Shown here: piece after piece, positions 2,150 to 24,178 of the stretch
Position numbering within the stretch: position 1 is the first letter of the stretch
Layout: the number at the start of each line of letters is the position of its first letter
Notes under the pieces: generated by a model
What the model was told of the DNA's origin: nothing
Database searches by the model: none
The model's input: only the letters and a program-made list of their open reading frames with translations
UHGV virus genome: UHGV-1624389
Length of the DNA stretch: 26,134 bases
DNA from: a virus
Strand: one strand, 5' to 3'
Made by a program: the position numbers and the translations under genes

Positions 2150-2680
2150 TTAGCGAGTCAGAAACAACGAATCTTTATACTTTTGCTGTTGTTCATTTAA
2201 ATACTTAGCTGTTTCATCGCTGGCAAATGGAAATATTACCGTATTTTTAGGCATGGTAATTTCTTTTTTGTCCAGCGTCAGAGTAAACATAGGAACATAC
2301 TGAGCAGAGTAACGCACCGCAGAAACGAGCTCTAGTTTAGACTCTTCAATAACACTTAAATTATCCAGGCTAACTTTCTCTTCATCTTTTTTCTTTGACG
2401 CATTTAAAGTTTTTATTACTTTATTTAATTTCTCCTGAAAATCCTCCTTAAAGTTTTCAGGATTGCCGTCGACAACAAGAATCTGTTCACCCTGATTATC
2501 TGGAAAAATAATCTTTGCACTTATCAATTTATTTTCTTTATAAACATCACCAAGTTTTATGGCTCCTCCAGATAACTGAATAATATGTTCATCTTTAAAG
2601 GAGATGTTGCCAGAGATTATGAGAGATGAAAAAACAGCCGCTGCTCCAAGAATTACACTTGCTGTGATATAGCCTTTCAT
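2150..2680 (-). CDS. Hypothetical signal-anchored or secreted protein; AT-rich cargo gene inside the tail cluster
   Basis: 176-aa ORF with hydrophobic N-terminus MKGYITASVILGAAAVFSSLIISG and a Lys/Glu-rich remainder. Visibly AT-rich compared with flanking tail genes (not computed). Has its own AT-rich upstream spacer (2681-2771) and downstream terminator. Confidence 0.55.
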   Translation of the reverse strand: MKGYITASVILGAAAVFSSLIISGNISFKDEHIIQLSGGAIKLGDVYKENKLISAKIIFPDNQGEQILVVDGNPENFKEDFQEKLNKVIKTLNASKKKDEEKVSLDNLSVIEESKLELVSAVRYSAQYVPMFTLTLDKKEITMPKNTVIFPFASDETAKYLNEQQQKYKDSLFLTR

Positions 2681-2771: not shown

Positions 2772-4604
2772 CTACCAAAATCGGGTATAGCCAACATCGT
2801 GATTTATATCAATGCCACTGGAGCGTGTTTCCGTAACCCGCATACCTGGTGGCATATTTATAAATGATACCTTGATCTCACCATCAACTTTTGGCGCAGA
2901 AGCTTTGTTAATCATGAAGGGATTCGGGCCTGTGGCATCGGAGGCGTTGTTTGACTGAGCCAGATCTACCGCCGGATAAGGTGTGTATCCCCGCGCCGGT
3001 ATTCCCGTCCCATAAGCATCATAAGCACCCGCGCCCCACTGCGCAGAGTTAATGGCATCGACCGTGTCACCGGAACTGTCGGTAAACCACTCAATAATTG
3101 GCTTCAGCTTATCCCACATATCCTGAAACCACTTAACAACCGGTCCCCAGTTTTTGATCACCATCCCCAGCGGCGACCAGGCAAAAACCTTCTTCAGAAG
3201 TTCCCAGCCAGCCTCAAAATAAGGACCAATGGTTTCCCAGAGCTTCTTGAAATAAGGTCCGACAACATCCCAGTTAGTGATAATTAATCCCGCAGCCAGA
3301 GCAATCGCCGTCGCAATCATGCCAATCGGCGTCATCGACATAATCCTGCTGACAATACTGATGGCACTGCCCACGCCCATCAATCCCAGTTTCAGAATCG
3401 CAAGACCGGCAGCAAGCCCGACGACGCCGCGAATAACCCGGGGATTTTCATCCGCAAACTTCGTGAATTTCTCCCCCAACTCCCCCAGCCACTGCGTGAT
3501 ATTTTTGGCGTCACCAGAAAATGCGCCGCCAATAGCTGCAAGACCGTTAGTTGCGGTCCCCGTCATTGCCTCCCACAGGTTGGACAGCGTACCAAGCTGA
3601 GCCTGAACACGTTTATTCAGGCTGGCCTGTTTATTCATCTTCTGCTGGATCTGATCGTAGCCATCCTTTCCTTTATCGATTAGTGCATTGACCACCTGAA
3701 GGGTTTCGGCATCATCACCAAATATTGCCTTAAGTACGCCTGTTCGCTTAACGTCGGTCAGTTTTCGCAGCTTTGCCAGTTGCCTGAACATGTTATCAAG
3801 ACCGCCAAAACTCCCTTTGCCGTCAGTAAAATCGAGCTGTACCCCGAGTTTCTGGCGGGCCATGATTTTATTGACGTCCCTGATTTTCTTAACGCTTAAT
3901 CCGGACTGGATAACTTTTCGCAGGGCGTTACCTGCCGACTCCCCGTTCATCCCCATCTGATCCATCATGACGCTGATGGGGGCAAGGCTCTGTGCAGCCT
4001 GAAGACCGTCCTTGTTCACCATCTTCAGAACAGAGCTGGTTTTAGTGAAGAAGGACAACATGTTGGTATCGTCAACGCCCAGATAAAACGCCTTCTGGAT
4101 AGTGTCGAACAGCCCCATCATGTCTTTTGACGCCGTTCCGGTAGCATCCTGCATCTTTGCGGCAAACTCGGCAGCCGCTTCCGGTGTTTTTTTCAGTTGT
4201 ACCGCAAGATAAGCTGTCGCTTTACCCACACCGCCAAGAATGTTTTCTGCCGGGATCCCCTGACGCACCAGCATCTGCATCATGTTCTGGAAATCAGCCG
4301 TTGTACCGGGTAGCTGATTACCCAGGCCAATAGCCAGTTTATTGATGTCCTGAAAGCTCTTTCCAACCTCGCCGTTCGCATCCATCATGGCGACTTTCAG
4401 CCCGGTGGCGGCGTTTTCCTGATCGGCATAAGATTTCAGGGAAAGCGTCAGACCCGCTGCCAGTCCGCCTCCAAGCGCCAGCCCACCCTGTGACGCTTCT
4501 TCCGCCTGGCGTTTAAATCCCCGGATTTTCTTTTGCATTTTCGACAGCGCGGGAGAAAGCCTGTCGACACCGGTGATCAACGCCTTAAGCTCAAATTCCG
4601 CCAT
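2772..4604 (-). CDS. Tail tape measure protein
   Basis: 610-aa ORF, Ala/Gly-rich with a hydrophobic block (LAAGLAILKLGLMGVGSAISIV), located after the tail assembly chaperone and before the N-like gene. Confidence 0.8.
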   Translation of the reverse strand: MAEFELKALITGVDRLSPALSKMQKKIRGFKRQAEEASQGGLALGGGLAAGLTLSLKSYADQENAATGLKVAMMDANGEVGKSFQDINKLAIGLGNQLPGTTADFQNMMQMLVRQGIPAENILGGVGKATAYLAVQLKKTPEAAAEFAAKMQDATGTASKDMMGLFDTIQKAFYLGVDDTNMLSFFTKTSSVLKMVNKDGLQAAQSLAPISVMMDQMGMNGESAGNALRKVIQSGLSVKKIRDVNKIMARQKLGVQLDFTDGKGSFGGLDNMFRQLAKLRKLTDVKRTGVLKAIFGDDAETLQVVNALIDKGKDGYDQIQQKMNKQASLNKRVQAQLGTLSNLWEAMTGTATNGLAAIGGAFSGDAKNITQWLGELGEKFTKFADENPRVIRGVVGLAAGLAILKLGLMGVGSAISIVSRIMSMTPIGMIATAIALAAGLIITNWDVVGPYFKKLWETIGPYFEAGWELLKKVFAWSPLGMVIKNWGPVVKWFQDMWDKLKPIIEWFTDSSGDTVDAINSAQWGAGAYDAYGTGIPARGYTPYPAVDLAQSNNASDATGPNPFMINKASAPKVDGEIKVSFINMPPGMRVTETRSSGIDINHDVGYTRFW

Positions 4605-5015
4605 GTGCGCGTTTCTCCTGCTCTATCCTGTTTGCCTGACTGACCAGCAAGGGAATTTCACTGATCGGCATATTCAGCAATTCGAAGGGATTAATGCGCC
4701 AGTAGCTGGCGCAGTCAAAGAAGCGATCAGTGAGGTATTCAGCCGTCAGGCCTGGAGGAAAAAACCAGCCACAAGCCACGCCGCTGCATTCAGGTCTGCC
4801 GGAGACATCTGGTCGACAGAGCTTTGCGGCACTTTCGCCAGCCGCACAATGTATTTCGATACAACATGCGCCAGAAGTCTGACGGACTCATCCTGATTCA
4901 TCTGGTAGGGATACCCCAGCTCGCGGACATCTTTCCCGGTGGGCTCATCAAACTCCAGTACGGAGAGTGTCTCGCCATGAGCGGTAATCGGTTTCTTTAA
5001 CTCAAGCTCTTTCAT
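4591..5015 (-). CDS. Tail assembly chaperone, -1 frameshift-extended product (GT-like)
   Basis: Minus strand reads GCT GGT TTT TTC CTC CAG GCC TGA in frame 0. The -1 frame is open from the slippery T_TTT_TTC (rc of 4758-4764) to 4591, giving ...GWFFPPGLTAEYLTDRFFDC..., and overlaps the tape-measure start at 4604. This matches the conserved chaperone frameshift of dsDNA phage tails. Confidence 0.5.
4746..5015 (-). CDS. Tail assembly chaperone, zero-frame product (G-like)
   Basis: 89-aa ORF between tail tube and tape measure. Ends ...AGFFLQA just after a TTTTTTC slippery run. Confidence 0.6.
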   Translation of the reverse strand: MKELELKKPITAHGETLSVLEFDEPTGKDVRELGYPYQMNQDESVRLLAHVVSKYIVRLAKVPQSSVDQMSPADLNAAAWLVAGFFLQA

Positions 5016-5371
5016 TACTGGTAATCCCCTTCTTCACCGTGGAACTCAAGATCAACCGTGCCTTCTTCGGCATTATGGTTCGCTTCGCCGTGCAGCCAGG
5101 CTGACGACAATACATAGACCTGACCGTTCGCCAGCTCAGCAGTGATGGTCATCTCATCAGACGAGGTGATTTTGCTCACCGGAAAATTCTTCGGCACCTT
5201 GAAGGTCCCTTTGACATAAGGCGCACGGTGAGTTTCCTTGCGGTCCACTGAACCGTCCAGGCCGATGATGTCATCATTGACCGTCCTGTTCATGGGCACC
5301 TCAATGCCGCCGGTCAGCGATAGCTGCTGACCGTCAATTTTGAAATAACAGGTTCCCCCGATACGGGCCAT
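5015..5371 (-). CDS. Contractile tail tube protein
   Basis: 118-aa ORF immediately downstream of the sheath gene (shares ATGA-type junction at 5371). Size and position are typical of myovirus tube proteins. Confidence 0.7.
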   Translation of the reverse strand: MARIGGTCYFKIDGQQLSLTGGIEVPMNRTVNDDIIGLDGSVDRKETHRAPYVKGTFKVPKNFPVSKITSSDEMTITAELANGQVYVLSSAWLHGEANHNAEEGTVDLEFHGEEGDYQ

Positions 5372-6867
5372 TATGCAGACTCCTCTGAATACTGAAGACG
5401 GAACTGGTTAACCACGGCAAAAACACGCAACTGGTTAACATAGTCAGGCGGGAACAGCGTGTTCAGGCGGTTCGGATCGCTGGCATCACGCTCCACAACC
5501 AGGTACTGCTTAAACAGTTCGTAGTTTTCCACGATCCCCGCACGCTCAAGCTGACGGTAGGTTGCCAGCAGTTCCCCTTTGATTACCGCCGGGGTGACAA
5601 TCGCCTGACCGGGACCAAAGCGGGTACCGTCGCTGGCAAGCTTGTGACGCCCGTACTTACTGGTAATGACGGATTTCAGTTTGCGCAGTACATACGCACT
5701 GGTATGCAGCGTCTCGCTGTCGAGGTAGCTGTTATCCGCAACCCCGTAAGAATTTTTCCTGTACGTGGTGACATCACGCTGAATGCGCAGCACCCCGCTT
5801 TCGACATACGCCGTTGCCACGCCATGAGACAACAGGGTCTGCTGCTCGGTCATCGTGAACCGTTTCCCCTTCGGCGCAGGCAGCATACCCACCAGCTCAC
5901 CGGTCTGCGTGGGACGTGCCGGATCGTTGCGGATAAACACCGCTGCGCGGGCGGTACGGCTTGCCGCCAGCTCGTCGGCAGGCGTCTGGGTCTCTTTTTC
6001 GTACCCCGCCAGGGTAATGTGCTGCTGGTTAAACTGGTCACCAGCGGTCACCAGTTCTGACAGCGTGCCGATCTTTGCCGTATACACATGACCGTACAGC
6101 TGACGCGCATAGCTCCAGCGACCGCTGGTATCGTTCATCTCGGTCACCAGCGTGTTAACGGAGGCCGTGTCGTTGAACGGCAGGCCGATATAATCAAACG
6201 GCTCATCCGCCATTGCAGCCACCGCGCCGGTGAGAACCGGAGCACCCGTTCCGGCGGTACCCGTCGCCACGGCAATCTGTACGCCCGCTGGCAGCACTTC
6301 GCCCCCACCAAAGCCGTAGTAATTGAGGCTGACAGGAATTTCATTCCCGCAAAGCCCCTTATGACGCGCGGTCAGTGTGACCACGCCTGCCGAAGATGAA
6401 GCCGTAAACGGCAGGGTCGGAACGGCATTGATGGCATCCTGGATACTGCTGGCAATCATCGTGACGTTATCGCCGTTAGTCACCGGTGCCTGCACGCGGG
6501 TACGTCCCACATACACATTCACCGTGCCGGTTTCGGTTGCCGCCCCGGTCACCGTCAGCGTAACCGTTGCCGCCGCGCCTGTGGATTCAGGAACGGCAAT
6601 CACATACAGCTCGCCAAACGGGTCAGTCTGGCGATAAGCCTCGACCATACGCGCCAGCTGACTTCCCGCACCACAAATCTGGCGTGCATAGTCTGCCGAC
6701 GACATCAGTACCAGACTGTTGGCAACAATCTCTGCACCGTTATTGGCATGACCAATCAGCAGCGATGCTCCGCTGTCCTGTGCAGTATTCGCCGCCTGGT
6801 TATCCATTTCCGCATAAAACAGCGGAACCAGCGTATTCGACGGAATGGTGTTAAAGCTTATCGTCAT
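5371..6867 (-). CDS. Contractile tail sheath protein
   Basis: 498-aa ORF, MTISFNTIPSNTLVPLFYAEMDN..., size and position match Mu L / P2 FI-type sheath proteins. Confidence 0.8.
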   Translation of the reverse strand: MTISFNTIPSNTLVPLFYAEMDNQAANTAQDSGASLLIGHANNGAEIVANSLVLMSSADYARQICGAGSQLARMVEAYRQTDPFGELYVIAVPESTGAAATVTLTVTGAATETGTVNVYVGRTRVQAPVTNGDNVTMIASSIQDAINAVPTLPFTASSSAGVVTLTARHKGLCGNEIPVSLNYYGFGGGEVLPAGVQIAVATGTAGTGAPVLTGAVAAMADEPFDYIGLPFNDTASVNTLVTEMNDTSGRWSYARQLYGHVYTAKIGTLSELVTAGDQFNQQHITLAGYEKETQTPADELAASRTARAAVFIRNDPARPTQTGELVGMLPAPKGKRFTMTEQQTLLSHGVATAYVESGVLRIQRDVTTYRKNSYGVADNSYLDSETLHTSAYVLRKLKSVITSKYGRHKLASDGTRFGPGQAIVTPAVIKGELLATYRQLERAGIVENYELFKQYLVVERDASDPNRLNTLFPPDYVNQLRVFAVVNQFRLQYSEESA

Positions 6868-18624: not shown

Positions 18625-19620
18625 TCAGGCCAGTACGCCTATTGCCAGCGCACGATCGATAAAACGAAATATCAGCTCCAACTGGGAGCCATACATCTCT
18701 TCAAATGCCACGGTATCCGCATGCAGCTCGTCGTGATGCTTTCTGCACAAAGGCAACACAAAGAGGTCATGCGCTTTTGTACCCATTCCCCCCTGACCGT
18801 GGCCTATCAGGTGGTGGGGATCATCAGCAAGCTTTCCACAACATGCACACGGCTGTGTCTTAACCCAGCGCGTGTACTTTTCATTAACCCAGCGGCGACG
18901 TTTTGGGCGTAACATAAAAGACTCCGGCGACTCCGGATCCACTTTCAGCGCCAGCACCTTTTTCGCTTTATCCTGGATAATGCTGGTGGCAGGAACCGAA
19001 GGAACAAGGTCACTCTCCCGGGTGACAGACGGCACAACAGGCTTCGGTAATCTCAGTGCCTTACGGGCTGCACTTTCCGGTAAGGCATCCGCCAGGTCAT
19101 TACGAACCAGCCACCAGCACAGTTCCGGCATTGTCACAACGTGACTGTCATCAAAACCGAGATCACGGCGCACAACAGACAACACCCAGCGGGCACAGTT
19201 ATCCGTTGCCATTGATTCCAGCCGTTCCGTGAACTGATCGCGCAGCTGGTTATCGCAGTGCCAGCACAGACGGATTGCGCCCGGAGCGTGTCGCATTGTG
19301 GTCATGTTCTCGCTGTGCCAGTCGGAATGAGGCCACTGGCAGCCTTTTTCACGAAGTAACCAGCTTTCAAGACATTCCACGCCACCAGCACGACGGATCA
19401 CAGCCTCATTGCGGAACACGGCCCGAACGGCAGGATCATCCGCCAGCGGTTGTGATGCCGCCGGAACGGCACCACTGGCGAAAGATGAATAACGTTCCGG
19501 CTCAGGCTCCAGCAGGACACGCCCCTGCATAAACAGGGGCATCAGCTCTGAACCTGGTCTGAACAATACGATCCCCATACGCGGGGCAATTTCAGGGGTC
19601 AGTAGTGCTCTCACGGTCAC
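18625..19620 (-). CDS. DUF968-type nin-region protein with C-terminal HNH-like Zn-finger motif
   Basis: 331 aa with C-terminal CACCGKLADDPHHLIGHGQGG...CRKHHDELH. The track's first residue is a GTG codon at 19620; an ATG 14 codons in (MGIVLF) is an alternative start. Confidence 0.65.
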   Translation of the reverse strand: MTVRALLTPEIAPRMGIVLFRPGSELMPLFMQGRVLLEPEPERYSSFASGAVPAASQPLADDPAVRAVFRNEAVIRRAGGVECLESWLLREKGCQWPHSDWHSENMTTMRHAPGAIRLCWHCDNQLRDQFTERLESMATDNCARWVLSVVRRDLGFDDSHVVTMPELCWWLVRNDLADALPESAARKALRLPKPVVPSVTRESDLVPSVPATSIIQDKAKKVLALKVDPESPESFMLRPKRRRWVNEKYTRWVKTQPCACCGKLADDPHHLIGHGQGGMGTKAHDLFVLPLCRKHHDELHADTVAFEEMYGSQLELIFRFIDRALAIGVLA

Positions 19621-19621
19621 C

Positions 19622-20419
19622 TCAATGAACGGTATCGAGCAGCTTTAACAGCTCAGGGAATCGGGATTCGAAGAAATGCGGCTGCGTCTCGCGCGGATTT
19701 GCGGGACTGGTGATGTTCTTGCCGAACATGCAGCCTTTCGCTGTCAGTGACCAGAATTTTTTGATGTTGTTAATCGCAGTACGGCTGTATCGTTCGCGCT
19801 GCTCGACGATCCCCAGCTTCACCATCTGGTGATATGCCTGATTAGCTGTCAGGCGGATACCATACTGCTTCAGCAGTGCACTCAGTGACAGCGTGGGGCG
19901 GCTTGAGCCATCAGGCGCGTCAGCAGGAGCATCAATGGCATAGCTCGGTGCCAGATTCGGTAAACCAACAGCCTCCTGGAGTTTCTGACAGGCACCAAGC
20001 ACTGATGAGTTAGACAGGTTTAACTCCCGGCGCATAAAGTCCAGCAGAATCACACCAGCCTGCATCTTGTCAGCAGCCTGCCCGGATAATTTTTCCGGTG
20101 CGCTGGTTACCATGTCGAAAGTACGGATCACCTTCAGATGGAATGACGGGCTGATCCACATTGCATAGGCATACACCAGTTCTTTGCAGACATACGTCCC
20201 CTGGTTATTTCCGCCACGAATAACGTTAACTGGCTCTATATTGACCGAGTTGCAAATCTGCAACTCGCTTATTAAACGTTCAGTTTGCTCATTGCGGAGC
20301 CAGAATGCAGGCTTATGCTTATCCAGAGAACCGGCAGCCCTGTGCAGATCGTTCAGGCTGTAACGCCCATAAGCATCACGACGAACTTCAATACCATCAA
20401 TGACCATCAGATTATTCAT
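19622..20419 (-). CDS. KilA-N domain protein (antirepressor-like)
   Basis: Start set at MNNLMVIDGIEV (ATG 20419..20417), preceded by AGGAG. N-terminal region ...YSLNDLHRAAG...KPAFWLRN... is typical of KilA-N domains. Confidence 0.7.
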   Translation of the reverse strand: MNNLMVIDGIEVRRDAYGRYSLNDLHRAAGSLDKHKPAFWLRNEQTERLISELQICNSVNIEPVNVIRGGNNQGTYVCKELVYAYAMWISPSFHLKVIRTFDMVTSAPEKLSGQAADKMQAGVILLDFMRRELNLSNSSVLGACQKLQEAVGLPNLAPSYAIDAPADAPDGSSRPTLSLSALLKQYGIRLTANQAYHQMVKLGIVEQRERYSRTAINNIKKFWSLTAKGCMFGKNITSPANPRETQPHFFESRFPELLKLLDTVH

Positions 20420-20438
20420 ACTTCGTTTCTCCTCTTGA

Positions 20439-20828
20439 TCAGGCGGCTGCACCCGCCGTTTTCTCGTACTTACTGATAGTGATCTCGACCTTCCCTTCCG
20501 GGATAACCGGTCCCCACTCCACCAGCATTCTTTTCACCTGACTGTCGTCTTCCCACACACCCGCGTGGGTCAGGGCGTCAAACAGCGCCTTGTTATAGTT
20601 GTCCAGATCGCGGATCCGGTTATCCGGAGGAAACAACACGATCTCCACTGAAGCAGGTGCCGACGTTGGTTTTGGCAGACGACGTAACTGCTCAACTATT
20701 GCTGCACACGCCGCGCTCTGGAATTTGCGCCCCGCCGCGCTTATCAGGCTCTTACCTGCAAACGCCCCTTTATTGGGGTGTCGCCAGTACGTGTTCACGC
20801 TGGGCGGGAAAGGCAAGATCAGCTTCAT
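20439..20828 (-). CDS. rusA: RusA-family Holliday junction resolvase
   Basis: 129 aa, MKLILPFPPSVNTYWRH...DLDNYNKALFDALTHAGVWEDDSQV..., which matches the RusA pattern (PPS.N.YYRH...DLDN...DALT.AG.W.DD.QV) from memory. Confidence 0.85.
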   Translation of the reverse strand: MKLILPFPPSVNTYWRHPNKGAFAGKSLISAAGRKFQSAACAAIVEQLRRLPKPTSAPASVEIVLFPPDNRIRDLDNYNKALFDALTHAGVWEDDSQVKRMLVEWGPVIPEGKVEITISKYEKTAGAAA

Positions 20829-21151
20829 ACTTTCAGGCCCCTCTCATGTAACCAGTGGGCTGCACGCAGCCTGGCGTTTTCCTCACCGGCAAGCAGTGAG
20901 CGGATAATCCCGACCGCCTCGCTGTCGTCGTCCTTCACCACGGTATGAAGCGTGATGCCCCGGGCCACGCCACGCTTTATCGTGATGACGCCTTTTTTCT
21001 CCAGTGCGCGAAGATGTTCTACCGCTGCATTCACTGAACGGTATCCCAGCATGGTTGCCACCTCCTGATTGGTTGGCGGGAAGCCACGTTCTTTCTGGTA
21101 AGAAATCAGCATATCCAGCACCTGCTGCTGGCATTGAGTTAACATCGTCAT
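20825..21151 (-). CDS. LexA-like DNA-binding-domain-only protein (no peptidase domain)
   Basis: 108 aa: LTQCQQQVLDMLISYQKERGFPPTNQEVATMLGYRSVNAAVEHLRALEKKGVITIKRGVARGITL parallels the LexA N-terminal winged helix (LTARQQEVFDLI...[43 protein letters not shown]). The ORF stops well before any S24 Ser/Lys domain. Confidence 0.75.
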   Translation of the reverse strand: MTMLTQCQQQVLDMLISYQKERGFPPTNQEVATMLGYRSVNAAVEHLRALEKKGVITIKRGVARGITLHTVVKDDDSEAVGIIRSLLAGEENARLRAAHWLHERGLKV

Positions 21152-21801
21152 GCCGCCATCTCCCTGACCAGTTTTTCCGCCTGCTGGCGAACCTGCGCCA
21201 GAAACGCCTCACCACATGCCTCAAGTTCATCGCGCCCGATGTAGCTGATTGCCGGTCCCTTCCAGGTCTTGTCAAAAACAGCAATAGCACCAGCGAAAAA
21301 AGCTCCTGTCGGTACCTGCTTCTCGTCTTTCGGGATAAACCAGACAGGCAGTTCAAAACCAATACGCCCGCGAATAAAAGCAATATGATCTGCATCTTCC
21401 GGCCACCACACTTCGCTGGTGGCAGCTTTGATCAGGAAAACATAGCGCCCGCCCTTATCACGCATGGCACTGGCATGTTTCATGATGTAACGCATGCCGG
21501 TGATGTATTGCCCCTCATGCTGACTGGCGCGGCTGTATGGGGGATTACCAAAGGCAGCCCCTTTAAGCTCCGCAAGACGTTCTGACCAGTCATGCGCCAG
21601 CGCGTTGTCTTCCGCAGTGTAATACGCAGCACATTTGGCGTTATCACCGTCAGTAAACAGATCCAGAACAAACGGGCCAAACAGGGTGTTAATTCCCCAG
21701 AAAATGTTGTCCGGCGTGCGCCACTGATCGCCCACTTCCTTCAGTTCATGGGCTGGTTTGTTCCGCAGTTCCACCAGCGCCTGGCAATATTTATTACTCA
21801 T
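21148..21801 (-). CDS. Phage N6-adenine DNA methyltransferase (Dam-like)
   Basis: Contains FGNPPYS (the D/NPPY/F catalytic motif). Start set at MSNKYCQ (ATG 21801..21799), which overlaps the upstream stop as TAATG. Confidence 0.75.
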   Translation of the reverse strand: MSNKYCQALVELRNKPAHELKEVGDQWRTPDNIFWGINTLFGPFVLDLFTDGDNAKCAAYYTAEDNALAHDWSERLAELKGAAFGNPPYSRASQHEGQYITGMRYIMKHASAMRDKGGRYVFLIKAATSEVWWPEDADHIAFIRGRIGFELPVWFIPKDEKQVPTGAFFAGAIAVFDKTWKGPAISYIGRDELEACGEAFLAQVRQQAEKLVREMAA

Positions 21802-22289
21802 TAAGCCCCCACGTAATTCCCTGACAGATACCACTCTTCACCCGATGCAGCGCGCTTGCTGCTTTTCCGTAAGCACCGCTCACGACGCGCCAGAAAATTG
21901 TTTCGTTCTGGCTGGGAGTGGCTTTCACGGAATGCCGCCATCCACACGGTTGCAGCACGACGGTATAAGCCCCTGGACTCCAGTTCTTCAGCCTGGCGGG
22001 TCAGGCACAAAATCACCCGTGGATCGTTAGTGCCGACATAGAAATTGCGCACAGGTCTGGTTTCTCGAACTGGTTGTGGTTCCGGTTCCTGCGCTCTCTC
22101 AGTCAGGCGCGGGAAATGTCTGCGTGTATCTCCTTCACAACGGTGAGCCACACGCCCACTCTGACGTAACTTGCTTGCTGACTGCAGAACGCGCTGCCGT
22201 GAGTAACCTGCAAAAGCATCCGCAATGTCTCCGGAAGTACATCCCGGATGGGCTTCAATGAATTTCTGAACTTCATTCAAAAGACTCAT
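21801..22289 (-). CDS. Hypothetical nin-region protein (possible winged-helix N-terminus)
   Basis: ATG at 22289..22287 (MSLLNEVQKFIEAHPGCTSGDIADAF...), 2 nt after the O-like stop. Arg-rich C-terminal half. Not a recognisable DnaC- or P-type helicase loader. Confidence 0.45.
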   Translation of the reverse strand: MSLLNEVQKFIEAHPGCTSGDIADAFAGYSRQRVLQSASKLRQSGRVAHRCEGDTRRHFPRLTERAQEPEPQPVRETRPVRNFYVGTNDPRVILCLTRQAEELESRGLYRRAATVWMAAFRESHSQPERNNFLARRERCLRKSSKRAASGEEWYLSGNYVGA

Positions 22290-22291
22290 GA

Positions 22292-23233
22292 TCACCCCCT
22301 GAATCCTGCCGGGATCTGGCTGTAGTCCACGTTGTCGTAACTGGATTTGAAGTACGGGTCTTCGCGTTTTTCGGTGTACGTGCTGACGGACGGTGATAAG
22401 CGCAGGGAAAGCTCATCCCATTTTTCCCGCAACTTCGACGGGCTGAGCACGTTACGGCACCAGAACGGATCGCGGCTGACGCGGCTGTACATCTCGCAGA
22501 TTTGTTTGTGAGTACGACCATCCTGCACACACATCAGGCGAATTTCGTTTGCCCAGGCTGTCCAGTTCGGTTCTTTGGGACGAACCACCTCGCCGTCACA
22601 TTCGGCGGCTTGCTCGTACAGGGCGATGATTTTTTTCCAGAGCCACTGTGCGCAGGTCAAATCATCCTGCGTTCCCCACTGGCGCTTTTTAGGGCTGAAT
22701 ACAACCGCATCAGGATGGCGAGTTAAAAAATCCTGTTCATCCGTCTGCGTGTCCGGTTGCGAAGCGTCCGGACGAGAAGGTTTTTTATCTGACGGATCAT
22801 GTTTTGATTTTACTGACGGATCCCCGCCAGATTCTGACGGGTGAAAACCCGCTTTTTTGCCAGATTTCGACGCATCAAATTTTGACGGGTCAGATTTTGA
22901 TGCGTCAGATTTTGACGGGTCAGAATCTGACAGTTGAGAAAATGCCGCTGCCTGAAGCTTCGCAACGTTAAGCTGATAAACATTCGACGCATTGCGGTTA
23001 CCCTGGCGACGCGCCTTACGCGTTAACCAGCCTTCTGCTTCCAGCCGTGCGATAGCCGTCCTGACGGTACTCATCCCCGCGCCAATCTGACGGGCAATAG
23101 TTTCAATTGATGGCCAGCACACACCTTCGTCATTACTGAAATCAGCCAGGCGGGCCATAATTGCCACGCTGGATAATTTCATGCCTGATGCAGCGCAACC
23201 ATCCCATACATAGCCGGTTAATTTAGTGCTCAT
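22292..23233 (-). CDS. Replication initiation protein (lambda O-like, N-terminal HTH, iterons embedded)
   Basis: 313 aa with an N-terminal HTH-like region (SIETIARQIGAGMSTVRTAIARLEAEGWL), a central DPSKSDASKSDPSKFDASKSG repeat encoded by 15-bp DNA repeats, and a conserved-looking C-terminal domain. Confidence 0.7.
   Translation of the reverse strand: MSTKLTGYVWDGCAASGMKLSSVAIMARLADFSNDEGVCWPSIETIARQIGAGMSTVRTAIARLEAEGWLTRKARRQGNRNASNVYQLNVAKLQAAAFSQLSDSDPSKSDASKSDPSKFDASKSGKKAGFHPSESGGDPSVKSKHDPSDKKPSRPDASQPDTQTDEQDFLTRHPDAVVFSPKKRQWGTQDDLTCAQWLWKKIIALYEQAAECDGEVVRPKEPNWTAWANEIRLMCVQDGRTHKQICEMYSRVSRDPFWCRNVLSPSKLREKWDELSLRLSPSVSTYTEKREDPYFKSSYDNVDYSQIPAGFRG
22805..22935. repeat. Iteron-like direct repeats (candidate origin of replication) inside the O-like gene
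   Basis: Seven or more copies of a motif with core TGACGG (22814, 22835, 22883, 22913; variants at 22868, 22898, 22928). Five copies are spaced at exactly 15 bp across 22861-22935. Confidence 0.6.
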
Positions 23234-23242
23234 GACCGACCT

Positions 23243-23581
23243 CTATTTCCCTGAATTTACGACGAAACTGTTCGAGCGGACTGAAGCATTCATGCTCATA
23301 ACCTTCGCGGAGGTAGATAACCCGTTGTGTTTCCGGCTCCCAACGAATGACTCTGACGAGCACTCCGTAGTGATCTTTGAACCAGCGGTTAACTTGTCGC
23401 AAAGGACTGTCTCCTTCTGCCGGTTGAAATCACCCACAGCCCACTCTGCAAAGCTGTGGGTTACAATTTCCCTGTCACCTGGTACATTCACTGCATAGCA
23501 ATATTCCACCTTCGCTTTTCCACCCGGTACAGGAAGCGCAATCAGTTGCGAGCGACGGTAGTGTGTTGTTAAACTGTTCAT
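23243..23581 (-). CDS. Hypothetical protein with ambiguous reading frame in its 3' half
   Basis: ATG at 23581 has a good SD (GGAGA, 9 nt upstream). The N-terminal half looks protein-like, the C-terminal half is Ser-rich and low-complexity, and an alternative frame (TTG at 23402 to 23223) reads more like a real protein. See findings. Confidence 0.3.
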
Positions 23582-24147
23582 GCGTTAGTTTCTCCACAAC
23601 CAGAAGCAATCGACGCCACGACGCCCGGAGCTGCACACTCGCGGGCGTCATTACTTTCTGAAATGCAAAAAATTTTGTAGACAAGTGCTGCATGCTCCTG
23701 CAGCTTCGAAATTGAGAGATACAGCTCGTCGTTAATTGCTGTCTTCTCATGCGGTTCCACTACGCCGTCTTCGATTGCTGAACGAATCTGTTTTGAATAA
23801 CTGCCGATCTGTTCAATGACTTCCAGCAGACGCTGGTTAATATCGGCGTTGTCCACATCCTCGACGTCAGGAAGAGACACAAAGACGCCATTTGCAGACT
23901 GCGCCACAGCATCAGCAATGAAGTGAGTGCCACCAGCACGCTGTAAAACCATTGCCCATCCCAGCGGGAAAATCTGATCGCCATCTGCACGAAGGCGGTT
24001 GAATAAAGCGTTCTCTGTTACATCCAGCCAGTCAGCGGCTTCAGCGTAACCCCCCGGCAACGCCGCGATAGTTTTTCTGACAGCTTTCACGTACCACTCA
24101 GGCTGTTTTTCTATTTTCCAGTGATGCTTACCCACGGTTAGCCTCAT
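23578..24147 (-). CDS. CII-position regulatory protein (YdaT-like, putative)
   Basis: 189-aa ORF immediately downstream of the cro-like gene, in the position held by cII / YdaT in lambdoid prophages. No motif positively recognised. Confidence 0.45.
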
Positions 24148-24178
24148 CGTTCTGTGGTTAAAAATTGAAAGTGTTCTG

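Follow-up and report, generated by a model that had tools for sequence, protein, structure and literature searches.

The DNA analysed here, a stretch of 26,134 nt that we refer to as the window, derives from an SfV-like E. coli prophage, and its tail is contractile and Mu/SfV-like, with sheath and tube. The tail module runs in the order sheath, tube, PF10109 chaperone, PF10145 tape measure and Mu-type DNA_circ_N. On the minus strand, the sheath gene (5371–6867) lies upstream of the tail tube gene (5015–5371), whose 118-aa product matches PF10618 Tail_tube (E=2.4e-33) and has a RefSeq homologue named 'phage tail tube protein'. The tube gene adjoins the chaperone gene on its upstream side, its stop codon and the chaperone ATG overlapping as TAATG. 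The chaperone ORF, read in the zero frame (4746–5015, minus strand), encodes 89 aa (9.9 kDa) and ends TGG CTT GTG GCT GGT TTT TTC CTC CAG GCC TGA. Three codons ahead of this stop stands the heptamer T_TTT_TTC (4764–4758, minus strand), which we assign as the slippery site by direct reading, by its register and conservation, and by a position homologous to that of GGT TTT TTG in P2. The zero frame reads it as GGT (4766–4764), TTT (4763–4761) and TTC (4760–4758), that is, Gly84-Phe85-Phe86. From C4758 the −1 frame is open for 55 codons up to a TGA at 4593–4591, and its translation gives a T/E'-like domain (4591–4758, minus strand). The predicted fusion of chaperone residues 1–86 to this extension has 141 aa (15.9 kDa) and a junction peptide VPQSSVDQMSPADLNAAAWLVAGFFPPGLTAEYLTDR; the predicted peptide of the short form is VPQSSVDQMSPADLNAAAWLVAGFFLQA. 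The tape measure gene (2772–4604, minus strand; 610 aa, PF10145) has its ATG at 4604–4602, within the final 14 nt of the −1 ORF, over which the two overlap, and an AGGAG at 4619–4615 could be its ribosome-binding site. A first-pass annotation of the window had described an 89-aa ORF ending just past a TTTTTTC run and a −1 frame open to 4591 that overlaps the tape measure start; both descriptions proved exact to the base.

The same annotation had taken the 89-aa ORF for a tail assembly chaperone, and profile searches agreed. The protein matches PF10109 Phage_TAC_7, the family of P2 gpE, Mu gp41 and gp14, at E=1.9e-16 (60.3 bits against a cut-off of 25), with residues 4–86 aligned to profile positions 2–78 of 79. 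It also matches phrog_166 and phrog_103, as does P2 gpE. Comparison of the N-domain profile with the single P2 gpE and Mu gp41 sequences by hhalign gave no match because the profile is shallow, and family membership therefore rests on the Pfam and PHROG profiles. A search of solved structures returned light-harvesting-protein matches only, which we rejected as spurious.

Conservation of the slip site and the −1 extension

GG-TTTTTT-C/T was found in register in 20/20 related genome loci, which span 40–100% identity and range from Enterobacterales to Derxia. The −1 ORF of these 20 loci has 50–59 codons and ends between 13 nt before and 2 nt after the tape measure start, with one locus (L020) in which that start was not clear in the scan; most relatives have an 8-nt overlap of the −1 ORF with the tape measure gene. 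We extended the comparison to 120 distinct related regions by adding viral contigs, for which a first scan retrieved 100%-identical copies only and divergent queries were then used. Of the 120, 117 keep the T run in that register as T6 or T7, the latter in L018, L019 and L189. Relatives lacking an open −1 frame had been named beforehand as evidence that would count against a frameshift; instead, the regions that keep the run (the 120 span 40–100% protein identity) have a conserved extension of 49–62 codons. The three exceptions to the run (L047, L078 and L084) encode proteins identical to that of the window and carry GGG for GGT, which breaks the canonical first position of the heptamer. As these variants retain only the U_UUY tetramer, their sequences suggest that A-site slippage alone may be enough. 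In the 12 closest loci the synonymous positions of the heptamer are invariant, and flanking third positions vary at 0.4–0.7. We scanned the window's 77 mechanically called ORFs with a length of 80 aa or more, and an in-frame XXXYYYZ with a −1 extension of at least 30 codons occurred only in the chaperone gene and in one spurious ORF within the capsid gene.

Past the slip site, both codon periodicity and synonymous substitution change over to the −1 frame. Variability by codon position was 0.11/0.07/0.37 in the zero frame upstream and 0.12/0.07/0.27 in the −1 frame downstream, and the synonymous share of differing codon pairs past the site was 0.57 in the −1 frame compared with 0.09–0.10 in the other two frames. 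Stops past the site numbered none in the −1 frame and 1–6 in the others. Judged by these substitution patterns, the −1 extension is under purifying selection as protein, with the conserved peptide FDCAxYWRINPxELL...QANRI. It matches phrog_32181. Neither the extension of the window nor those of 12 relatives matched PF06528 (Phage_P2_GpE) at E<=10; P2 E' (2.2e-22) and locus L188 (1.3e-16) did. Profile alignment of the extension with the P2 E' domain PF06528 by hhalign gave P=3.6e-4 over 39 columns, a weak and only suggestive link between the two. Six apparent directly encoded fusions (P0001–P0006) were set aside as assembly errors and hence as no evidence for the fusion, because each is confined to a single contig and their indels lie at differing places.

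RNA structure downstream of the heptamer

A search for a stimulatory structure in 4650–4757 on the minus strand had been suggested, and we folded this region. Its MFE fold had z=−4.4, with elements beginning 24 and 44 nt past the heptamer. The sole strong hairpin found, an 8-bp hairpin UGCGCCAG-CUA-CUGGCGCA at 4695–4713 (minus strand; z about −5 in SfV-like clades), starts 44 nt downstream of the heptamer and overlaps the conserved DCASYWR codons. It is kept in several clades, including one G-C to A-U double change, and is absent in the CAK-YW[KN] and YDLAWFWK clades; the clades without it keep the slip site. In most loci, shuffled sequences folded just as well as the 45 nt after the site (z about 0), and across the loci folded there was no conserved hairpin or pseudoknot 5–9 nt downstream of the heptamer. 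The consensus fold of the alignment held nothing beyond a 4-pair core of the distant hairpin. A long-range helix was 77% paired among close relatives, its apparent double changes not being truly compensatory. No conserved upstream Shine-Dalgarno-like element was seen in the aligned loci, and a search of Rfam gave no match. With the near-site fold at z about 0, the hairpin limited to certain clades and the helix lacking compensation, we rejected a conserved downstream stimulator, and the structure sought in 4650–4757 is unsupported as a conserved element. The 4695–4713 hairpin probably does not belong to the frameshift signal, which appears to be the heptamer alone.

The distant hairpin could, in principle, make a leading ribosome pause and the one behind it queue with its A site on U_UUU_UUC. 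If so, ribosome collision at the hairpin would lift frameshifting over the 0.1% basal level, and the element would be a distance-tuned, queue-mediated stimulator of a kind undescribed for tail chaperone genes. We regard as highly unlikely the combined proposal that such a stimulator operates here and that the extension (phrog_32181) is a sister family, as yet unmodelled, to the P2 E' domain.

The proposed frameshift and its alternatives

It is very probable that a programmed −1 ribosomal frameshift yields the 141-aa chaperone fusion; the ribosomal nature of the shift, its efficiency and its role in assembly are what we infer. The majority of ribosomes would make the 89-aa chaperone and stop at the TGA at 4748–4746. 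A minority, with tRNA-Phe on UUU in the P site and on UUC in the A site of U_UUU_UUC, would slip one base back, after which both tRNAs would again lie on UUU and CCU CCA GGC... would be decoded for 55 more codons. The product would consist of chaperone residues 1–86 and an E'/T-like C-terminal domain, ending within the tape measure start. On the model of lambda G/GT and P2 E/E+E', the N-terminal domain common to both forms would coat the tape measure protein and the rarer extension would recruit the tube protein; the slip frequency would fix the ratio of the long form to the short one at a low value, and both proteins would be expected to be absent from the virion. Measurements in E. coli show both U_UUU_UUC and U_UUU_UUU to be prone to shifting, and IS elements make use of them (PMC4066793). 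In a reporter that lacks stimulators, however, UUUUUUC has a basal efficiency of just 0.12% (PMC4066793 supplement), which, together with the lack of a conserved stimulator, implies either an unrecognised context effect or that very little fusion is made. The tail chaperone frameshift is conserved widely, and P2 has TTTTTTG without a hairpin (PMC5009743, PMC3091744, PMC2628397). Our literature search for a frameshift in the SfV group, or for its products, found no description. The frameshift is a textbook conserved recoding event and an ordinary instance of a known mechanism; it adds one further well-conserved example of a known rule and opens no new question.

Slippage during transcription could give the same result, since an extra U in the U6 run followed by normal translation would produce the same 141-aa fusion (GFF-PPG...); the identity of this protein to that of a −1 ribosomal slip follows directly from the sequence. 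The conserved element is moreover a homopolymer, lengthened to T7 in L018, L019 and L189, and the low ribosomal efficiency of the bare heptamer (0.12%) leaves room for another contribution. However, the run is not longer than 6 in 115 of the 120 distinct regions, and efficient slippage of bacterial RNA polymerase is known mainly from runs of about 8–9 or more A/T residues. The lambda and P2 events have been described as translational (PMC5009743, PMC3091744), and P2 and its relatives conserve TTTTTTG, in which a run of 6 T fits X_XXY_YYZ. We therefore consider transcriptional slippage very unlikely.

Proposals that dispense with slippage altogether fare worse. The window has a GTG in the −1 frame at 4779, 21 nt ahead of the first post-slip codon, from which a separate gene of 62 aa could run to 4591, and both the annotation of the −1 ORF as its own hypothetical protein in GenBank ON470584 and the existence of a PHROGs family for it (phrog_32181) would accord with this. 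Yet when the −1 frame was scanned from its upstream stop to 75 nt beyond the slip site, 11/18 related genome loci had no ATG, GTG or TTG able to start the ORF, and the peptide is still conserved in them. Where an NTG is present it is a by-product of a zero-frame Trp codon (xxN TGG) with no Shine-Dalgarno-like sequence ahead of it (AGACCTGAATGCAGCGGC), and in some loci the −1 frame opens a mere 21–36 nt ahead of the site. A search with the −1 ORF among 1.84 billion representative proteins returned 11 matches, several of them repetitive and unrelated to phages; so small a number indicates that gene-calling programs seldom assign it a start, and a separate gene is extremely unlikely. That neither the T run nor the open −1 frame has a function, with 4594–4745 a non-coding spacer, would require a coincidence whose odds are moderate for a single sequence: by our own arithmetic, an in-frame XXXYYYZ within the ~47 overlapping codons has a probability of ~0.18 and 55 stop-free codons one of ~0.07. 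Site, register and peptide are nonetheless conserved down to 40% identity with a substitution pattern peculiar to the −1 frame, no other real gene of the window has this arrangement, and an annotated P2 frameshift lies at the homologous position, leaving chance a next to negligible explanation.

With the programmed −1 frameshift as the preferred reading, existing annotation is incomplete at this locus. It had been foreseen that standard annotation would miss the fused product, and this was the case in the five records examined (RefSeq/PGAP E. coli, SfV, vB_EcoM-689R6, Pantoea AH07 and Salmonella F1055), none of which has a joined CDS; they carry the short CDS alone, or the −1 ORF as a separate hypothetical protein. 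In these records the 141-nt stretch 4605–4745 is unannotated or called a hypothetical gene, and it encodes part of a tail assembly protein that is probably essential. In a search of 5,426 complete E. coli genomes, the SfV/SfI-like prophage module had matches in ~1,090. The locus calls for a joined CDS annotated with ribosomal slippage, and a family model could be built for the extension domain.

Comparison with known systems

The stimulated frameshifts of dnaX and IS3/IS911 have the X_XXY_YYZ motif class in common with the window, which in contrast has no conserved Shine-Dalgarno-like element, nearby hairpin or pseudoknot, or Rfam match. Lambda gpG/gpGT, the functional model, has the same gene position, a −1 shift shortly before the first ORF ends and the same logic of two products from one start codon, with no required downstream structure. 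Its heptamer is given as G_GGA_AAG (Levin et al. 1993; Xu, Hendrix and Duda 2004, 2013, 2014; as described in PMC5009743), and the same account has the G domain binding the tape measure and the T domain the tube protein, at a ratio of ~30:1 (PMC5009743). Lambda differs from the window in its protein families, its heptamer and its non-contractile tail, and sequence homology is not expected. The first-pass annotation had compared the site with the G/GT-type frameshift of tailed phages. The position between tube and tape measure genes fits that comparison; because the tail is contractile, with sheath and tube, the precise homologue is P2 E/E+E', and lambda G/GT is merely an analogue.

In P2, gpE/gpE+E' belongs to the same N-domain family PF10109 (P2 1.5e-12, window 1.9e-16), and its −1 frameshift is reported at T_TTT_TTG (Christie et al. 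2002, as cited in PMC3091744); E+E' is annotated with the −1 shift in GGTTTTTTG. In both phages the tail is contractile, the gene is flanked by those for tube and tape measure, and the slip is at GGT TTT TTN, at the C-terminal edge of PF10109, where profile position 78 aligns with the A-site codon of the heptamer in each (L85, TTG, in P2; F86, TTC, in the window). The products are alike in size, the short forms having 91 aa in P2 and 89 aa in the window and the fusions 142 and 141 aa, and the −1 ORF ends within the tape measure start with an overlap of 8 nt in P2 and 14 nt in the window. Neither has a conserved downstream hairpin. They differ in the last base of the heptamer, which is G in P2 and C (or T) in the window and its relatives, in the number of zero-frame codons after the site (6 in P2, 3 in the window), and in the C-terminal extension, which is PF06528 in P2 and without a PF06528 match in the window.

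The rest of the tail module is not P2-like but Mu/SfV-like, and the Mu-like neighbours in the window are sheath L, tube M, DUF2635 (gp38) and DNA circularisation protein N. Mu gp41 has 144 aa compared with the 89 aa of the window chaperone and matches PF10109 weakly (2.5e-5, 24.7 bits); it matches PF23746 Gp41_Mu at 9.1e-35, whereas the window chaperone matches PF10109 only and not PF23746. A −2 frameshift is reported for Mu gp41 (Xu et al. 2004, as cited in PMC2628397), in contrast to the canonical −1 heptamer here. The window thus has a Mu-like tail module with a P2-type −1 site, whereas Mu is reported with a −2 shift.

Slip site and gene order in the tail region

The region around the putative slip site is 98.4-99% identical to the Shigella/Escherichia phages SfV, SfI, SfII, SKA5 and vB_EcoM-689R6, and a search of 5,426 complete E. 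coli genomes found prophages 98-100% identical around the site in ~1,090 of them. Along the minus strand of the window, HK97-type head genes are followed by genes for the tail sheath (5371-6867; PF04984, PF17482, PF17481), the tail tube (5015-5371; PF10618), the 89-aa tail assembly chaperone (4746-5015; PF10109), the tape measure (2772-4604; PF10145) and a Mu-type DNA circularisation protein (760-2088). The tail is contractile, of the Mu/SfV kind.

Re-reading the sequence bore out what the first-pass annotation had stated about the chaperone ORF, its heptamer, the open -1 frame and the overlap with the tape measure gene. The 89-aa ORF ends in ...GCT GGT TTT TTC CTC CAG GCC TGA, with the heptamer T_TTT_TTC at 4764-4758 (minus strand) read in the zero frame as GGT TTT TTC. 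After a -1 slip the codons become CCT CCA GGC... and 55 of them are open before a TGA at 4593-4591, giving a 14-nt overlap with the tape measure gene, whose ATG is at 4604-4602. The predicted products are a fusion of 141 aa (15.9 kDa) and a short form of 89 aa (9.9 kDa). As a control, we scanned all 77 mechanically called window ORFs of 80 aa or more for an in-frame XXXYYYZ heptamer with a -1 frame that stays open for 30 codons or more beyond the stop; two passed, the chaperone gene and a spurious ORF lying within the capsid gene. The first three codons after the slip (4750-4758, minus strand), CCU CCA GGC, encode Pro-Pro-Gly, a motif that needs EF-P for efficient translation. This motif is not kept in relatives, which have PAG, PQG, PSG or PRD instead.

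The tape measure gene is separated from the DNA circularisation gene by a 176-aa ORF (2150-2680, minus strand) that matches phrog_5485 and no Pfam model; nothing close to its DNA turned up in the phage collection. The prophage in NZ_CP053247.1 (locus L026), otherwise 98% identical, carries a different gene in this slot, encoding an OB-fold protein on the opposite strand; the slot looks like a variable cargo slot. At 21917-25143 of L026, RefSeq marks five early-region genes as 'frameshifted' (a methyltransferase, yfdN, an HTH protein, ymfL and a Cro/CI regulator), suggesting either prophage decay or homopolymer errors in the L026 assembly. The window at ~18634-24159 aligns to this locus with 25 gap openings.

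Conservation of the site and selection on the -1 frame

The first-pass annotation had named related phages without an open -1 frame here as a refutation. A scan of one genome per species yielded 20 loci of 40-100% protein identity, found in Escherichia, Shigella, Edwardsiella, Pantoea and Erwinia and as far away as Derxia. All 20 have GG-TTTTTT-C or -T in the same register and a -1 ORF of 50-59 codons. In 19 of them the end of this ORF falls in the range from 13 nt ahead of the tape measure start to 2 nt beyond it; in the twentieth, L020, the scan gave no clear tape measure start. Four scans of viral contigs added 170 loci, for a total of 120 distinct regions after removal of duplicates. GGT TTT TTC is present in 112/120, AGT TTT TTC in three and an in-register run of seven T in two. 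In the remaining three, viral contigs L047, L078 and L084, whose proteins are identical to the window's, GGG replaces GGT by a change at the equivalent of 4764, with L047 additionally having TTT for TTC. The GGG change destroys position one of the heptamer and leaves the U_UUY tetramer, which ranks with the most shift-prone E. coli motifs (PMC4066793); the three contigs might represent impaired prophages, variants that are tolerated, or errors of sequencing. In contig locus L045 (IMGVR_UViG_2541047860_000003) the -1 frame runs past ...WRINPFELLN into an unrelated ORF, ~500 aa in total; this copy is rearranged or chimeric and no longer has the last part of the extension or the start of the tape measure gene.

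Variability by codon position in the 12 closest loci, all gap-free, was 0.11/0.07/0.37 upstream of the site, in the zero frame, and 0.12/0.07/0.27 downstream, in the -1 frame. Of the codon pairs that differ between the chaperone stop and the tape measure start, 57% are synonymous when read in the -1 frame, against 9-10% in the other two, and stops number zero in the -1 frame versus 1-6 in the others. Within the heptamer the third positions of GGT and TTT never vary among these 12 loci; those of the three codons immediately upstream have a variability of 0.42-0.67. The extension keeps the motif FDCAxYWRINPxELL...LLxxQANRI and belongs to phrog_32181 ('unknown function'); Pfam has no model for it.

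Access to the -1 frame and stimulatory structure

These comparative and selection data contradict a chance arrangement of heptamer and open frame, the probability of which we consider negligible. Searched from its upstream stop as far as 75 nt past the slip site, the -1 frame contains no ATG, GTG or TTG in 11 of 18 genome loci, and any NTG present, including GTG 4779 in the window, is a by-product of a zero-frame Trp codon and has no Shine-Dalgarno sequence ahead. A full HMMER scan of the 62-aa -1 ORF against 1.84 billion representative proteins returned only 11 matches, so gene callers rarely see it. We therefore reject independent initiation as highly improbable; judged from these sequences, it must be a change of frame that would give access to the extension domain. 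One U added to the U6 run during transcription would produce the same fusion as a -1 ribosomal slip, yet six bases make a short run for RNA polymerase to slip on efficiently, published descriptions treat the homologous events as translational, and the run is still six T in 115/120 distinct regions. For these reasons we hold transcriptional slippage to be unlikely.

Database 'fusion' proteins of 107-139 aa (P0001-P0006) were set aside as assembly errors, each being confined to a single contig with indels at differing positions. Several long repetitive proteins (P0123, P0125 and P0126), apparently unrelated to phages, were picked up with the -1 ORF through WR..P-like segments that recur in them.

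The first-pass annotation had pointed to 4650-4757 for a downstream stimulator. This stretch does fold well (-33.9 kcal/mol, z=-4.4), but its elements are badly placed: an 8-bp hairpin, UGCGCCAG-CUA-CUGGCGCA (4713-4695, extended stem 4691-4718, minus strand; z ~ -5), starts 44 nt past the heptamer, and a long-range helix pairing 4733-4724 with 4667-4658 (minus strand) starts 24 nt past it. For most relatives, shuffled sequence folds at least as well as the 45 nt directly after the heptamer. The hairpin is strong (z ~ -5) in SfV-like clades, where its sequence is invariant, synonymous positions included; it overlaps the conserved DCASYWR codons, is absent from several clades that retain the slip site, and keeps only a 4-pair core in the alignment fold. 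L124 has one G-C to A-U double change in it (AGC/TAC to AAA/TAT). In close relatives, pairing of the long-range helix stands at 77%, with double changes that are not truly compensatory. Neither an Rfam match nor a promoter-like site was found in the region. We conclude that the site has no conserved canonical stimulator, as has likewise been reported for P2 and its relatives (PMC3091744). Unlike the SfV group, the divergent, GC-rich loci L018, L019 and L023 have a stable hairpin 1-2 nt past the heptamer (GGGCUCGG-CGGC-GAGCCC, -15.4 kcal/mol, in L018; -22 kcal/mol, z=-2.5, in L023), and some lineages may therefore use a structural stimulator.

Annotation and relationship to P2 E/E+E'

That standard annotation would miss the fused product proved correct, as none of the five records opened carries a joined CDS. 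The short CDS alone is annotated in RefSeq E. coli (PGAP), SfV, Pantoea phage AH07 and Salmonella phage F1055, and the vB_EcoM-689R6 record enters the -1 ORF as a separate hypothetical protein. The feature lists of other matching phages contain no separate fused product, and a literature search that covered sources other than Xu et al. 2004 and the SfV genome paper found no description of a frameshift in the SfV group.

The 89-aa protein matches PF10109, 'Phage tail assembly chaperone proteins, E, or 41 or 14' (E=1.9e-16, 60.3 bits, cut-off 25), as well as phrog_166 and phrog_103, all three shared with P2 gpE; it has no match to Gp41_Mu, the domain specific to Mu. The heptamer's A-site codon falls at PF10109 profile position 78/79 in both proteins (P2 L85, TTG; window F86, TTC). 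In P2, RefSeq annotates the -1 frameshift in GGTTTTTTG, giving an E+E' fusion of 142 aa and an 8-nt overlap with the tape measure start. PF06528 (P2 GpE) is matched by P2 E' and locus L188, and not by the window extension or 12 divergent relatives; a 57-sequence extension profile nevertheless aligned to P2 E' and L188 over 39 columns covering the PF06528 core (P=3.6e-4), which is suggestive of remote homology between the extension and P2 E'.

The first-pass reading as a conserved tail chaperone frameshift describes a textbook mechanism whose closest homologue, P2 E/E+E', is annotated and cited as a -1 translational frameshift. The mechanism is already known, and what is new is therefore a highly probable, unannotated instance in the window's SfV group. 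In a reporter without stimulators, UUUUUUC shifted at 0.12%, UUUUUUU at 0.33% and the P2 heptamer UUUUUUG at 0.12% (PMC4066793 supplement), whereas P2-type frameshifting reportedly exceeds lambda's ~1:30 in efficiency by a factor of 2-3 (PMC5009743). Native context must therefore matter for shift efficiency, at P2 as much as at the window site.
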